Below, in pieces: positions 1,293 to 38,840 of a stretch of 64,000 nt of DNA. The notes beneath the pieces are model-generated. The model saw only the letters and a list, made by a program, of their open reading frames with translations. It was not told where the DNA came from and made no database searches. Location: assembly GCA_049860595.1 (NCBI GenBank), contig CP187551.1, one strand, 5' to 3'. The first letter of the stretch is position 1; the number at the start of each line of letters is the position of its first letter. The DNA is from Methanocaldococcus sp. 16A (GTDB taxonomy: Archaea > AGJL01 > Methanococci > Methanococcales > Methanocaldococcaceae). Position numbers and translations under genes: made by a program.

Positions 1293-1682
1293 ATGGCAGA
1301 ACAAAAAAAGGAAAAATGGGGAATAGTTCATATATATTCATCATATAACAACACAATAATCCATGCAACAGACATTACAGGAGCAGAGACAATTGCAAGA
1401 GTTTCTGGAGGTATGGTTACAAGAAACCAGAGAGATGAGGGCTCTCCTTACGCAGCAATGCAGGCAGCTTTCAAATTGGCAGAGATTTTAAAAGAGAGAG
1501 GAATTGAAAATATACACATAAAGGTTAGAGCTCCAGGAGGTAGTGGGCAGAAAAACCCTGGACCTGGGGCTCAAGCTGCTATTAGAGCATTAGCAAGAGC
1601 TGGATTAAGAATTGGAAGAATTGAGGATGTTACACCAGTTCCACACGATGGAACAACACCTAAGAAGAGGTTCAAAAAATAA
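1293..1682 (+). CDS. rps11: 30S ribosomal protein S11 (uS11)
   Basis: [18 protein letters not shown] and [11 protein letters not shown] motifs. Confidence 0.97.
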
Positions 1683-1693
1683 GGTGATAATCT

Positions 1694-2266
1694 TTGATTA
1701 CAATCAAAGAGAAGAAAAAGACAAGAATTGGGGAAGAATTTATTTTTTCTTTGAAAGCCCCAATTTCATTTTCTAATGCCCTTAGAAGAATCATGATTTC
1801 TGAAGTCCCAACCTATGCTATTGAAGATGTCTATATATACGAAAACTCATCATCAATGGATGATGAGATTTTAGCACACAGATTAGGTTTAATTCCCATT
1901 AAAGGAAAACCAATTTTGGAGAATGAAGTTATAACATTCACCTTAGAAAAAGAGGGACCTTGCACAGTTTATTCATCAGATTTAAAATCTGATAATGGGG
2001 AAGTTGCTTTCAAAAACATCCCAATTGTTAGATTAGGAAATGGGCAAAGAATACAGATTGAATGTGAAGCAATTCCTGGCATTGGTAAGATTCATGCAAA
2101 ATGGCAACCATGCAATGCTGTCTATAAACAAATTGCTGAAGATGAAGTTGAGTTTTTTGTTGAAACTTTTGGACAAATGGAAGCAGAAGAAATATTAGAA
2201 GAAGCTGTTAAGATACTAAAAAATAAAGCTGAAAGTTTCTTACAACAGCTTGAATTAATTGAGTAA
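1694..2266 (+). CDS. rpoD: DNA-directed RNA polymerase subunit D (Rpo3), short form without Fe-S domain
   Basis: [30 protein letters not shown] motifs; follows rps11. Confidence 0.95.
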
Positions 2267-34943: not shown

Positions 34944-36227
34944 TTAGAATGGACACCTGAAGTTTCTTCCAGCATATTTGCTTAATCCCAATTCTTGCTC
35001 AATTCTAATTAGTTGGTTGTATTTAGCTGTTCTTTCCCCTCTTGCTGGAGCTCCTGTCTTTATCTGTCCAGAGTTCAAAGCTACTGCTAAATCAGCTATT
35101 GTTGTATCTTCAGTTTCCCCACTTCTGTGAGAAACTATAACTCCATAACCATTTCTAAATGCTAAATTAGCAGCATCAACAGCTTCACTTAATGTTCCAA
35201 TTTGATTAACTTTTAACAATAAAGCATTTGCAGCTCTTTTTTCTATACCTTTTTTCAATCTCTCAGTATTTGTAACGAACAAATCATCTCCAACTATCTG
35301 TATATCTAACTCTTTAGTTATCAACGCAAAGCCCTCAAAGTCCTCTTCATGGAATGGATCTTCAATTGAAACTATTGGATATTCTTCAACTAAAGCTTTA
35401 TAATAATCTAAAAGCTCCTCTCTTGTTAATTTTTTGCCTTCAACATTATAGTAGCCGTCTTTATAAAACTCTGAAGCAGCAGCATCTAAGGCAAAGACAA
35501 TCTCATCCTCATATCCCGCCTTTTTAACACTTTCAGTTAATAAATCTAATGCCTCTCTTGATGTTTTTAATGGAGGAGCAAAACCCCCCTCATCTCCAAC
35601 ATTTATAGCATTTTTACCATACTTATCTTCAATAACCTTCTTTAATACATGATAGACCTCTGAACCCATCCTTACAGCTTCAGAAATTGATGTAGCTCCA
35701 ACAGGCATTATCATAAACTCTTGTAACTCTAAATCATTTCCAGCATGTTTCCCTCCATTTATGACGTTCATCATTGGAACAGGCATAACAAAAGAGTTAA
35801 AGCCCCCTAAATATTTATACAATGGCATTTTTGCTGTTGCTGCTGCTGCCTTTGCTACAGCTAAGGAAACTGCCAATATTGCATTAGCCCCTAACTTTGA
35901 TTTGTTTGGTGTTCCGTCCAATTGAATCATTATATTATCTATTTCTCTTTGCATTCTTGCATCATATCCTAAAAGTTCTGGCCTAATTATTGAATTAACA
36001 TTTTCAACAGCCATTAAAACTCCTTTTCCACCAAATCTCTTTTCTTTATCTCTCAACTCTAATGCCTCATGTGTCCCAGTTGATGCACCACTTGGAACAA
36101 TAGCAGAACCATATCCATTTCCTTTTGTTATAACTTCCACTTCAACTGTTGGGTTTCCTCTTGAATCAATAACTTCTCTTGCAACAATTTCTTTAATTTC
36201 AAATCTCTCATCCATGTTGTATAACAA
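34944..36227 (-). CDS. eno: enolase
   Basis: DSRGNPT, PSGASTG, GDEGG, SHRSGET, KTGAPAR; TTG start after GGTGA. Confidence 0.98.
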
Positions 36228-36248
36228 ATTATCACCCTCCAAATTTAT

Positions 36249-36343
36249 ATAGGACTTTCGTAGCTTTATATATTAATTTGGAATTTAGACACATTATAGG
36301 TGTCCATTGTTCAATAAAAAATTTGTTCCTGCGAAAGTCCTAT
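36249..36343. repeat. palindromic intergenic element, family 1, copy F
   Basis: ATAGGACTTTCGTAG...CTGCGAAAGTCCTAT; central GACAC..GTGTC. Confidence 0.9.
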
Positions 36344-36388
36344 AGTTTTGTACAACATAAATTTAAATTCTATATGTGATGCTCAAAC

Positions 36389-37732
36389 TTATATATATGG
36401 GGTCTTCCCGATGTAGTCTAATATATGAAAATTAAGACATTTAAAATAGCGACCATTATAATCAACTTTATAGACTACATCGGGATTGGGCTTCATTAGT
36501 CTCAACTCCCCTCTGGGTTCATTGGGGAGTAAATCATCGACCTCAGCCCCAGCCACGGGGACCCCAACTCCGTCTAAGAGTTTTTTAACTAATTTAACTC
36601 CTCTTTTAAAGATATTAAAAGAGCCAACTAATTGTCTATTAAAAGCTCCACATTTTTCGCATTTAACAACCTGTCCCTCTTGGGACTCCATTTTACTCCC
36701 GCATACGGGACAGGTTTTTGATGTGTAGTGTGGATTAACATAAAAAACAATACTCTTATATTCTAACTTTCTCGCAATACTTCTCCAACTCGTTCTATCT
36801 AAATCTCTGTTAAACTCCGAATTCTTATCATACATATTAAATTTGTTTAAATCTTCAAAGATAAAAATAGCATTAGGAAATAGTCTGGATAATTGAATAG
36901 TTAGTTTATTGATAAAATCATTAACTCGATTTTTTCTTCTATTGTAATATTTTCTTAACAATCTACCGATTCTTTTAGGAGCTTTTTTATAGATTGATTT
37001 TAATTTATCGATAATAGTATCATAAACCTCTTTAATCCAATGCAACTCGGATATATCAATCCTTATCCAACCCTCTGTTGGGTGATATAAATCTAATGAC
37101 TTTAAGTTACTATCAACTCCAACTACAACCTTTTTATTCGATAAATCAATAGGTTTTTTAAAAGTTATTAATGCCTCGTTATCCTTTAAAATAATCTCTC
37201 CTATGTCAAAATCTCTAACTTTATCAAAGAACCATTTATTTTTAATATCTAAAATTAAGTATTCTTTTCTCGGTTTTATAGTAATTCTTATTTCTCCTTT
37301 ATCTTTATTATATTTTATTAATGTTGTTTTAACTCTAACGAATGGTCTTTTAAATGTTGGTTTAATTCTTTTTCTTTTTCCTTTTAAATAATTAGATTTC
37401 CAACTTTCTATTGTAGAGTATGCTACTTTAATAGCTCCATCGACATAATGCTTTGCAAAATTCCATCCATTTAGTAATTCATTTCTTAACTCTCTCTTAA
37501 AATCCTTATCCTTAGGAATTTCTGGAATTAATCGTGTGGTAGTGTAGTGTTTATATTTGTTCCTCAGTTTATACCGATGTTTAACTATTTTTTCTTTCCA
37601 GTTTATGTTATTCCAAATAATATCTACTGCTTTTTGAGCAATGTTTATAAATTCGTATGGTAAGTTTTTTAAATCATAACTGTATTTAACTTTATATGTC
37701 AATACAATTTCACTGGGAAGTTTGTTATTCAT
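36389..37732 (-). CDS. tnpB: TnpB-family RNA-guided nuclease (IS200/IS605/IS607 OrfB), no adjacent transposase
   Basis: RuvC-I VGVD207, RuvC-II FE293DL, TSKTCPVCG..CEKCG zinc ribbon, RuvC-III NRQLVGSFNI. Confidence 0.92.
   Translation of the reverse strand: MNNKLPSEIVLTYKVKYSYDLKNLPYEFINIAQKAVDIIWNNINWKEKIVKHRYKLRNKYKHYTTTRLIPEIPKDKDFKRELRNELLNGWNFAKHYVDGAIKVAYSTIESWKSNYLKGKRKRIKPTFKRPFVRVKTTLIKYNKDKGEIRITIKPRKEYLILDIKNKWFFDKVRDFDIGEIILKDNEALITFKKPIDLSNKKVVVGVDSNLKSLDLYHPTEGWIRIDISELHWIKEVYDTIIDKLKSIYKKAPKRIGRLLRKYYNRRKNRVNDFINKLTIQLSRLFPNAIFIFEDLNKFNMYDKNSEFNRDLDRTSWRSIARKLEYKSIVFYVNPHYTSKTCPVCGSKMESQEGQVVKCEKCGAFNRQLVGSFNIFKRGVKLVKKLLDGVGVPVAGAEVDDLLPNEPRGELRLMKPNPDVVYKVDYNGRYFKCLNFHILDYIGKTPYI
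36398..36575 (-). ncRNA. putative omega/sot RNA of TnpB (structured, K-turn containing)
   Basis: GC-rich segment overlapping the tnpB 3' end; K-turn hairpin 36488-36549; 15-bp perfect stem 36406-36420/36471-36485; 7-bp long-range pair 36398-36404/36560-36566. Confidence 0.7.
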
Positions 37733-37832
37733 TATGTATCCCTTAAAATTTCTTTTTTAATGTAATCATCAATTTCTATCTTTGTTTATCTATTATTTAA
37801 CAATTTCGAGAGGCGTTTATAATGGTGATAGC

Positions 37833-38840
37833 ATGATTACTGAAGCATTAAAAAAGGTTATTGAATTTAAAGATTTAAATGAAAAGGAAGCAGAAGTAGT
37901 TATGAAAGAAATTATGAGTGGAAATGCAAAGCCTACACAGATAGCTGCTATATTAACTGCTTTAAGAATGAAAGGAGAGAGTATTGAAGAAATTACCTCC
38001 TTTGCAAAAATTATGAGAGAATTTTCATTAAAAATATATCCAGATGTTCCTAAGTTGTTAGATACTTGTGGAACTGGGGGGGATAATTTAAACACATTTA
38101 ATATAAGCACTGCCACTGCTTTTGTAGTCTCTGCTTATGTTCCAGTGGCAAAACATGGAAATAAGGCAGTCAGCAGTAAAAGTGGTAGTGCAGATGTTTT
38201 AGAGGCATTAGGAGTTAATTTAAATGTTCCTATAGAGAGAGTTAAGGAGTCAATAGAAAAGATAGGTATTGGATTTTTGTTTGCTCCTAATTTCCATCCA
38301 GCAATGAAGTATGCAACACCAGTAAGGAGAGAGTTGGGGATTAGAACTGTCTTTAATATCTTAGGACCTTTAACAAATCCTGCTAATGCAAATTATCAAT
38401 TAATGGGAGTTTATGATGAAAAATTGACAGAAAAATTGGCTTATGTTTTAAAGAATCTTGGTTTAAACGGGGCTTTAGTAGTACATGGTAGTGGAATGGA
38501 TGAAATAACAACCATTGGAAAAACAAAGATATCTGAGCTGAAAAATGGAGAAGTAAAGAGCTATTACATTGAACCAGAAGATTTTGGTATTAAGAAAGCC
38601 AAATTAGAAGATATTAAAGGAGGAAATGCTGAAGAAAATGCCAAAATAATTAGGGCAATATTTGAAGGAGAAGAAGTTGGGGCAAAGAGGGATATTGTAG
38701 TTTTAAATGCTGCCTATGCTTTATATATTGCTGAAGAGGCTAAAAATGTTGAGGAAGGCATAAAATTAGCTGAAAAATCAATTGATAGTGGAAAGGCTTT
38801 AAAGAAATTAGAGGAATTAATTGAATTCTATAAAGAGTGA
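37833..38840 (+). CDS. trpD: anthranilate phosphoribosyltransferase
   Basis: [29 protein letters not shown]. Confidence 0.97.

Follow-up and report, generated by a model that had tools for sequence, protein, structure and literature searches.

The window analysed in this study is a stretch of 64,000 nucleotides (nt) from contig CP187551.1 of Methanocaldococcus sp. 16A (assembly GCA_049860595.1). It contains a tnpB gene that is flanked by eno and trpD and has no adjoining tnpA gene. The gene is an uninterrupted open reading frame (ORF) of 447 amino acids with an ATG start. Its product has the RuvC-I aspartate D207, the RuvC-II glutamate E293 and a four-cysteine (C4) zinc ribbon. The canonical RuvC-III aspartate (D-R-D-x-N or N-A-D-x-N) is not present, and Q367 stands in its place within N365-R366-Q367; a further aspartate, D214, lies after RuvC-I in GVDSNLKSLD. 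A sequence-only reading of the window had reported the intact ORF, these residues, the CAA codon of Q367 and the position of the gene, and we confirmed all of them. In this study, we found that the gene belongs to a common archaeal insertion sequence (IS), of which this is a stranded copy, and that its glutamine is inherited and not peculiar to this copy.

Results

Alignment by phmmer to PDB chains set N-R-Q against the D-R-D of ISDra2 TnpB (8bf8) and of mimivirus Fanzor2 (9b0l), and Q367 was also aligned to the second Asp of D-R-D in 9yyg, an AI-designed TnpB. By the printed numbering, the second D in 8bf8 is residue 361, which we take to be the catalytic residue. The same N-R-Q/D-R-D register was obtained with a profile of 72 family sequences, in which the consensus D-R-q-l-n-A-a-i-N-I lies over D-R-D-e-N-A-A-l-N-I. 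The protein passed the cut-offs of Pfam PF07282 (Cas12f1-like_TNB; 45.8 bits, cut-off 26.3), Pfam PF01385 (OrfB_IS605; 31.6, cut-off 30.5) and NCBIfam TIGR01766 (55.1, cut-off 32); its score for NCBIfam NF040570 (guided_TnpB) was 93, under the cut-off of 100. The AlphaFold (AF2) model had a mean predicted local distance difference test score (pLDDT) of 87.3 and a predicted template modelling score (pTM) of 0.74. Foldseek matched 71 PDB chains at E≤0.001, headed by Fanzor2 9b0l, Cas12f and TnpB (E 2e-13 to 1e-8), which identifies the TnpB/Cas12f fold. The folded protein comprises about residues 1-388, and pLDDT is below 50 at residues 389-415 and 436-447.

The sequence-only reading had raised the possibility that Q367 is a private mutation of a decaying copy. 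The homologues contradict this. A word-indexed protein search gave 143 matches at E≤1e-3, and we examined the best 120. Eight of these end before the motif, P0081 is frameshifted at the motif, and Gln occupies the RuvC-III position in 111 of the 112 that cover it. Gln-type homologues span Methanococcales, Thermococcales, Bathyarchaeia, Thermoproteota and Asgard archaea; the sources named among the matches listed include Methanocaldococcus, Methanotorris, Thermococcus (including T. kodakarensis), Thermofilum, Bathyarchaeota and Freyarchaeota. An exhaustive search of representative proteins gave 812 matches at E≤0.001 (148 at ≤1e-10 and 39 at ≤1e-30), and the best 150 of the 812 were used. The alignment held 184 sequences of at least 280 amino acids, and D207 and R/K366 align in 171 of them. 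At position 367, these sequences carry Q (129), D (29), H (11) or N (2). The motif of the Gln-type sequences (with R/K366) reads D-R-Q in 97, N-R-Q in 30 and E-R-Q in 2.

A quick maximum-likelihood tree was built from 83 rows, comprising every non-Gln row of 330 or more amino acids (40) and 43 Gln rows thinned from 123. In this tree the Gln-type sequences group into a single clade of 45 rows (Shimodaira-Hasegawa-like approximate likelihood ratio test, 99), and its sister carries D-R-D. The exceptions within the clade are a D-R-D row (P0139), an N-R-H row (P0131) and the frameshifted P0081. A separate second Gln, in P0181, groups beside the H-type P0242 and the D-type P0212. The positions of P0131 and of P0181/P0242 indicate that Gln and His replace each other and that Gln arose at least twice. 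Such an interchange would be expected if the residue has kept a role.

Because Q367 is clade-wide, with D214 fixed, the aligned homologues identify it as the normal inherited state of the lineage and not as damage. By the same comparisons, this TnpB belongs to a large archaea-wide clade that is associated with IS607 and is marked by the RuvC-III Gln (D/N-R-Q) and by Asp at position 214 on strand beta-2. N365 is also ordinary: among the 11 tnpA-linked loci in which the motif was located, six read D-R-Q and five N-R-Q (three further tnpA-linked loci were left unscored by the pattern). To judge from these loci, N365 is no second lesion. A major "derived" TnpB clade is described as carrying N-A-D-x-N at RuvC-III (PMC10691335). 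Across 72 diverse members of the family, D207, N209, P125, C344, C358 and C361 are invariant, and E293, R366, N373, T337, S338 and C341 are at least 90% conserved. The surroundings of the active site are retained, unlike those of the exapted dead TnpBs in the census discussed below.

Purifying selection on the body of the protein is strong, and this holds for its RuvC half as well. Against 13 copies with intact ORFs and at least 73% identity, the ratio of nonsynonymous to synonymous divergence (dN/dS) was 0.07-0.15 for residues 1-384 and 0.06-0.12 for residues 197-384; against six copies at 59-63% identity it was 0.11-0.26. In the tail of the ORF, synonymous divergence (dS) was 0.24-0.53, compared with 0.94-1.39 in the body, and dN/dS was 0.4-1.0. 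The drop in dS means that constraint on the tail acts on RNA. Since pLDDT is below 50 and dS falls there, the tail (about residues 385-447) is read-through and not folded protein. These final ~60 codons overlie the scaffold of an omega RNA, and the stop codon lies 8 nt past the right end of the element that contains the gene.

The anatomy of that element and its lineage assignment can be given with high confidence from comparison with related copies: window positions 36399-37814 (minus strand) very probably represent a non-autonomous IS607-family insertion sequence. The description "solo TnpB" in the sequence-only reading is right in that no tnpA gene stands beside tnpB. The gene is not isolated, however, because it lies within a recognisable IS607-type element from which tnpA was deleted. 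In blastn comparisons with 33 related loci, similarity runs from about 23 nt 5' of the ATG to about the stop codon, and a separate match of 52 nt lies further upstream. This 52-nt left end (LE) has 88% identity to positions 615-666 of locus L008 and aligns with the LE of L008, L011, L020, L012, L007, L021, L014 and L015, where it stands just 5' of tnpA. Upstream of tnpB, most close relatives carry a coding sequence. In L008 it is a tnpA that encodes 207 amino acids with a MerR-type helix-turn-helix (HTH) and a Resolvase domain, and its stop codon overlaps the tnpB ATG, as is typical of IS607. The window retains only the first and last few tnpA codons, and about 590 bp between them are gone. 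These alignments show that tnpA was almost wholly removed by a clean internal deletion of that length.

At the right end all copies share ...GGGAAGACCCC and diverge directly after GACCCC. The ends are thus defined, and they are asymmetric; the flanks ...TTATAAAC and ATATATAT... do not form a duplication. Neither terminal inverted repeats nor a target duplication is visible at the junctions of the element in the window. The right end (...CCCC) and the left end (G-CC...) are compatible with a GG/CC crossover, and the flanks showed no clear rule. No clear target-adjacent motif (TAM) was seen in the nine left flanks that could be defined, which are A/T-rich like the genome. The coordinates of the element and of the features within it are given in Table 1.

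Table 1. Position of the IS607-family element, its gene and its RNA in the window
Feature	Position	Strand	Evidence
IS607-family insertion sequence, tnpA deleted, 1416 bp	36399..37814	-	Similarity to 14+ related copies starts at GCCT[CT][CT]CGAAA and stops at ...GGGAAGACCCC; flanks diverge beyond
Left end (LE), 52 nt, including first codons of former tnpA (TTGATGATTA)	37763..37814	-	Aligned to LE of complete elements
Deletion junction and tnpA 3' remnant (last ~10 codons) into tnpB ATG	37733..37762	-	Aligns to 3' end of relatives' tnpA from ~37755
tnpB ORF, 447 amino acids, folded part about residues 1-388	36389..37732	-	ORF read, profiles, model, Foldseek
RuvC-I motif G-V-D207-S-N209-L-K-S-L-D214	37091..37114	-	D207 (GAT, 37112-37114, within GVDSN) and N209 invariant in 72 aligned sequences; D214 (GAT, 37091-37093) Asp in 128/129 Gln-type
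RuvC-II Glu E293, within IFIFEDL	36854..36856	-	Glu in 129/129 Gln-type and 29/29 Asp-type
C4 zinc ribbon C341, C344, C358, C361	36650..36712	-	C344, C358 and C361 invariant, C341 at least 90% (72 sequences)
RuvC-III N365-R366-Q367, Gln for catalytic Asp	36632..36640	-	Aligned to D-R-D of 8bf8, 9b0l and 9yyg; Q367 codon CAA at 36632-36634
Omega-RNA scaffold core, five helices, ending exactly at right end	36399..36565	-	Fold z-score, covariation
Predicted guide segment, flank DNA 3' of scaffold, contains ORF stop codon	36379..36398	-	Copies diverge after GACCCC

The sequence-only reading had proposed a search of the genome for a TnpA acting in trans. In the host genome (1.62 Mb, 99.98% complete), neither PF00239 (Resolvase) nor PF01797 (Y1_Tnp) gave a match; in 14 control genomes the same searches found PF00239 in 12 and PF01797 in 6. 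Since the genome has neither a serine nor a Y1 transposase, the element is stranded and unable to move now.

The lineage is mobile and not domesticated, being patchy, multi-copy and often linked to tnpA. Matches at E≤1e-20 were found in 15 of 40 genomes of the order, with up to 11 in one genome; many of these copies are broken fragments, and one lies on a small second (plasmid) contig. Two complete elements within one genome share 97.3% identity over 2014 bp, and two other copies within one genome share 97.1% over 1360 bp. Linkage to tnpA was scored in 32 usable loci, which remained from 48 locus rows after seven duplicates were merged and six rows without the tnpB 5' end and three with less than 440 nt upstream were dropped. 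An intact tnpA lies directly upstream in 14 of the 32, a broken one in 1 and none in 17. The linked loci include records from Thermococcus, Thermoproteota and Njordarchaeum.

At the insertion site itself, the element is absent and eno adjoins trpD in all nine loci of the genus that show both flanks, where the spacers measure 74-994 nt and have no similarity to the element. In the nearest relative the spacer is 166 nt, the flanks are 98% and 95% identical and the element is absent; among the nearest relatives the spacer has been rearranged compared with the window, and a repeat fills part of it. These comparisons establish a recent insertion of a mobile element and not a conserved host regulator. 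In three of the nine loci (L042, L043 and L044), the spacer measures 877-994 nt, compared with 74-199 nt in the six others, and the extra DNA is unlike the IS. On the trpD side, the left end of the element stands 18 nt 5' of the trpD ATG (37833). The ribosome-binding site GGTGAT was kept and any promoter that lay upstream was displaced (window 37815-37835). Transcription of trpD must start inside the element or run through it.

At the 3' end of tnpB, a G+C-rich segment folds strongly, with a single-sequence z-score of -4.66. An omega-RNA consensus was derived from 14 copies, 13 of them distinct, and comprises 34 pairs in five helices; 97% of its cells are paired, compared with 87% in shuffled alignments. 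Compensatory double changes occur in 16 of the 34 pairs, compared with 8.8 in shuffles, and none of 500 shuffles reached 16. Sliding the pair partners by 1-3 columns left only 1-2 compensated pairs. The row of the window itself has the commonest standard pair or a compensated pair at all 34 consensus positions. The scan of the region around 36 kb (35500-38500) returned no Rfam family at E≤1, HgcC included, and the omega RNA is thus not a curated Rfam family. RNAs that overlap the 3' ends of tnpB genes in the sense direction have been described in archaea, including T. kodakarensis (PMC4615843).

The predicted 20-nt guide has one exact match in the host genome, which is itself, and two matches with three mismatches; no second match with two or fewer mismatches was found in that genome. 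In four copies (L012, L013, L015 and L019), inserts of 44-89 nt made of short hairpins (GGAAGCGAAGCTTCC...) lie in the terminal loop of the last omega-RNA helix, and the helix is kept.

The same genome carries further members of the family. An intact paralogue of 414 amino acids (L002, 1474-2718, plus strand) lies about 2 kb past the end of the window on the same contig; it is 63% identical and has the same D-S-N-L-K-S-L-D and N-R-Q. The subfamily of this paralogue, at ~60% identity, has tnpA upstream in none of eight loci. A distant TnpB of 423 amino acids (L003, 1423-2694, minus strand) is 28% identical, has N-A-D-V-N at RuvC-III and carries Gly at the position of the RuvC-II Glu (VIGNLSE). 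It resembles the type with a rearranged RuvC-II, Glu to Gly, that is described in the census (PMC10691335). There are also two miniature derivatives without genes, L005 (~1468-1760, minus strand) and L004/L035, each with an LE-like sequence and an omega-RNA remnant. L005 has in addition a short zinc-ribbon remnant, a 139-nt RNA in which all helices are retained and compensatory changes are seen, and its own flank-derived guide. The RNAs of these mini-elements could serve as trans guide RNAs for the two full-length TnpBs.

Between the right flank of the element and the start of eno, at window positions 36241-36349, lies a repeat of ~100 nt with terminal inverted repeats TATAGGACTTTCG ... CGAAAGTCCTATA. 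It has 48 matches in the host genome (including the self match at the eno flank), 46, 38, 27 and 23 in four relatives and 1-4 in other genomes of the genus, and no Rfam match. It looks like a miniature inverted-repeat transposable element (MITE) or a small structured-RNA family.

Discussion

TnpB branches with an altered RuvC-III are already known from the published census of Altae-Tran et al. 2023 (PMC10691335). Its text describes six large branches of this kind, the Ser-6 and RIIIr-6 rearrangements being nearly restricted to archaea, and gives Asp-to-His for RIIIr-4, the largest altered branch, which also lacks the zinc finger. Asp-to-His is the only substitution named in the main text, which mentions neither Asp-to-Gln nor the beta-2 Asp; the figures and supplements may hold them. 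The Gln-type clade shares with the altered branches a clade-wide non-Asp RuvC-III, the link to a serine-recombinase (IS607) TnpA, archaeal hosts and mobility, and differs from RIIIr-4 in that it keeps the C4 zinc ribbon. In the census, conserved substitutions in the active site are taken to indicate that activity is retained (PMC10691335).

In domain order and fold, the protein is like ISDra2 TnpB of the IS200/IS605 family (8bf8/8exa/8h1j; Foldseek E 1e-8 and 6e-7, profile E 2.6e-24). The two also share the RuvC-I Asp, the RuvC-II Glu, the C4 zinc ribbon, the R-x-x-x-x-x-x-N-I context of RuvC-III and an omega RNA that overlaps the 3' end of the gene and stops at the right end. However, they are only ~15% identical, ISDra2 TnpB has D361 where the window TnpB has Gln, and its partner transposase is of the Y1 type whereas that of the Gln-type lineage is a serine recombinase. 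Mimivirus Fanzor2 (9b0l) is the best match among solved structures in sequence (E 9.5e-8) and in fold (E 2.2e-13, TM 0.49), but it is eukaryotic-viral and has a canonical D-R-D and Thr at the position of D214. As described for the IS607 family of Helicobacter pylori (PMC6188088), the tnpA of the relatives, with its MerR-type HTH and serine-recombinase domains, directly precedes tnpB, and no terminal inverted repeats or target duplication are seen at the window junctions; the window copy differs in having no tnpA. The right end CC, which reads GG on the opposite strand, and the left end G-CC are compatible with the GG crossover dinucleotide given in that account (PMC6188088). In the thermophilic TnpB of S. 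islandicus, which is not Gln-type, RuvC mutants at D187 and E271 are reported to lose cleavage (PMC11579290). TldR proteins and other exapted dead TnpBs share with the window gene a non-canonical RuvC residue and the lack of an adjacent transposase gene. They differ in being immobile in a fixed neighbourhood with guides to host promoters, whereas the window element is a recent IS insertion whose guide matches its own flank only.

The best overall explanation, which we hold with modest confidence, is that the locus is a stranded IS607 element with a Gln-type TnpB that is likely to be a nuclease with a non-canonical metal site. The protein would still load the omega RNA and act on DNA that matches the flank-derived guide. 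Its metal site would most likely be formed by D207, E293 and Q367, with D214 as a candidate extra carboxylate, and its role as a nuclease would be the usual TnpB cutting of the emptied donor site. In the host genome this activity would have no substrate because there is no transposase to excise the element, and the copy would persist as a young, still intact passenger. For the Gln-type clade as a whole, the case for and against retained DNA cleavage appears evenly balanced from its sequences.

The proposal of a re-wired site that uses D214 came from the sequence-only reading, which suggested a check of whether Q367 and D214 co-vary. The raw counts favour it: D214 is present in 136 of the 140 sequences with Q or H at 367, compared with 5 of the 29 with Asp. 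By residue 367, Asp214 accompanies Gln in 128/129, His in 8/11 and Asp in 5/29, and Thr214 is found in 19 of the 29 Asp-type sequences. Only two other acidic residues in the RuvC half are enriched in the Gln clade relative to the Asp type, D/E238 (0.92 vs 0.10) and D272 (0.94 vs 0.48), both more weakly than 214. The residue equivalent to 214 is Ala in 9yyg, in the one PDB alignment by the family profile that reaches the region, and Thr in Fanzor2 9b0l in the phmmer alignment. Thr214 with Asp367, as opposed to Asp214 with Gln or His367, is the pattern that a carboxylate relocated between touching residues would leave. D214 may be a compensating carboxylate, a proposal drawn from these alignments that we regard as tentative and somewhat doubtful.

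Several points weigh against a retained nuclease. A carboxylate-to-amide change at the RuvC-III metal position abolishes cleavage in canonical TnpB and Cas12. We found no biochemical assay of any Gln-type TnpB in the TnpB literature on IS607, RuvC-III, T. kodakarensis and Methanocaldococcus. Pairwise dN/dS averages the whole path between copies and informs little on this copy since it was stranded, and the intactness of the ORF is weak evidence of selection in place because the insertion is young. The association of D214 with residue 367 has exceptions in both directions, with three His-type sequences that lack D214 and five Asp-type sequences that have it. Among six phylogenetically independent pairs, about two changed in the same direction, none in the opposite direction and about four were uninformative (p 0.25-1). 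The association is therefore not significant once relatedness is counted, and most of the signal comes from one clade; the independent contrasts are too few to prove the covariation that the raw counts suggest. Finally, TnpB is described as not required for transposition itself (PMC6188088), so that mobility and linkage to tnpA are no proof of nuclease activity.

It is also conceivable, though unlikely, that the whole Gln-type clade cannot cut DNA. Its proteins would bind omega RNA and target, RNA processing being possible, and would aid the element independently of a nuclease, for instance through repression or guidance of TnpA, or by obstructing the donor site. The copy in the window would then be an RNA-guided DNA binder. 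Throughout the clade Gln replaces the metal-binding Asp, and in the subgroup of the window the preceding Asp is also Asn (30 N-R-Q vs 97 D-R-Q). TnpB is described as dispensable for IS607 transposition and as lowering its rate in E. coli (PMC6188088), and purifying selection and a conserved omega RNA suit a binder and a cutter equally. However, the known dead derivatives of TnpB, as the census describes them, are immobile in fixed contexts and have usually lost more than one catalytic residue (PMC10691335), whereas the Gln-type clade is mobile, and D207, E293, R366, N373 and the zinc ribbon are invariant in it. Gln and His are both able to bind metal ions, and they interchange here; moreover, the fixed extra Asp214 would be left unexplained. 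We consider it rather improbable that hundreds of IS607-linked Gln-type TnpBs are unable to cut and yet are mobile, tnpA-linked and constrained, with TnpB serving the element by RNA-guided binding alone.

The copy in the window could instead be an inert relic that is too young to have decayed, its protein and RNA being functionless in this host, which seems distinctly improbable to us. Its tnpA is gone and the genome has no transposase. The insertion is missing in a relative with 95-98% identical flanks, so that little time has passed since it occurred. Two gene-less miniature derivatives are present in the same genome, and many copies in relatives are broken. On the other side, the ORF is intact with every residue that is invariant in the clade, all 34 omega-RNA pairs are standard or compensated in the window row, and an intact paralogue from a subfamily without tnpA has survived ~2 kb past the window; each of these observations is still compatible with neutrality. 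The sequence-only reading also considered an RNA-guided DNA binder or regulator, with TldR as the known type. A domesticated regulator of this type, in which a nuclease-dead TnpB was recruited by the host and is guided by RNA to a promoter such as that of eno or trpD, would fit the one non-canonical catalytic residue and a tnpA-less gene that stands between two housekeeping genes, upstream of eno and at 18 nt from the start codon of trpD. It is highly improbable given that none of the nine eno-trpD loci of the genus with both flanks has the element, copies elsewhere have unrelated neighbourhoods and one is on a plasmid contig, the predicted 20-nt guide finds no second genome match at two or fewer mismatches, the RuvC-III/zinc-ribbon end is neither shortened nor degraded, and Gln also occurs in copies with an intact tnpA.

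The question of cleavage thus belongs to a large and successful clade of hyperthermophiles rather than to this copy, and the element boundaries, the omega-RNA scaffold and the guide start defined here supply constructs for its assay. If the clade cuts with D-E-Q and the beta-2 Asp, it would offer a natural case of a moved carboxylate in a RuvC site, and compact RNA-guided nucleases that withstand heat could be drawn from it. A clade that does not cut would challenge the homing model for TnpB, and cleavage-driven homing would not be the sole benefit that TnpB brings.

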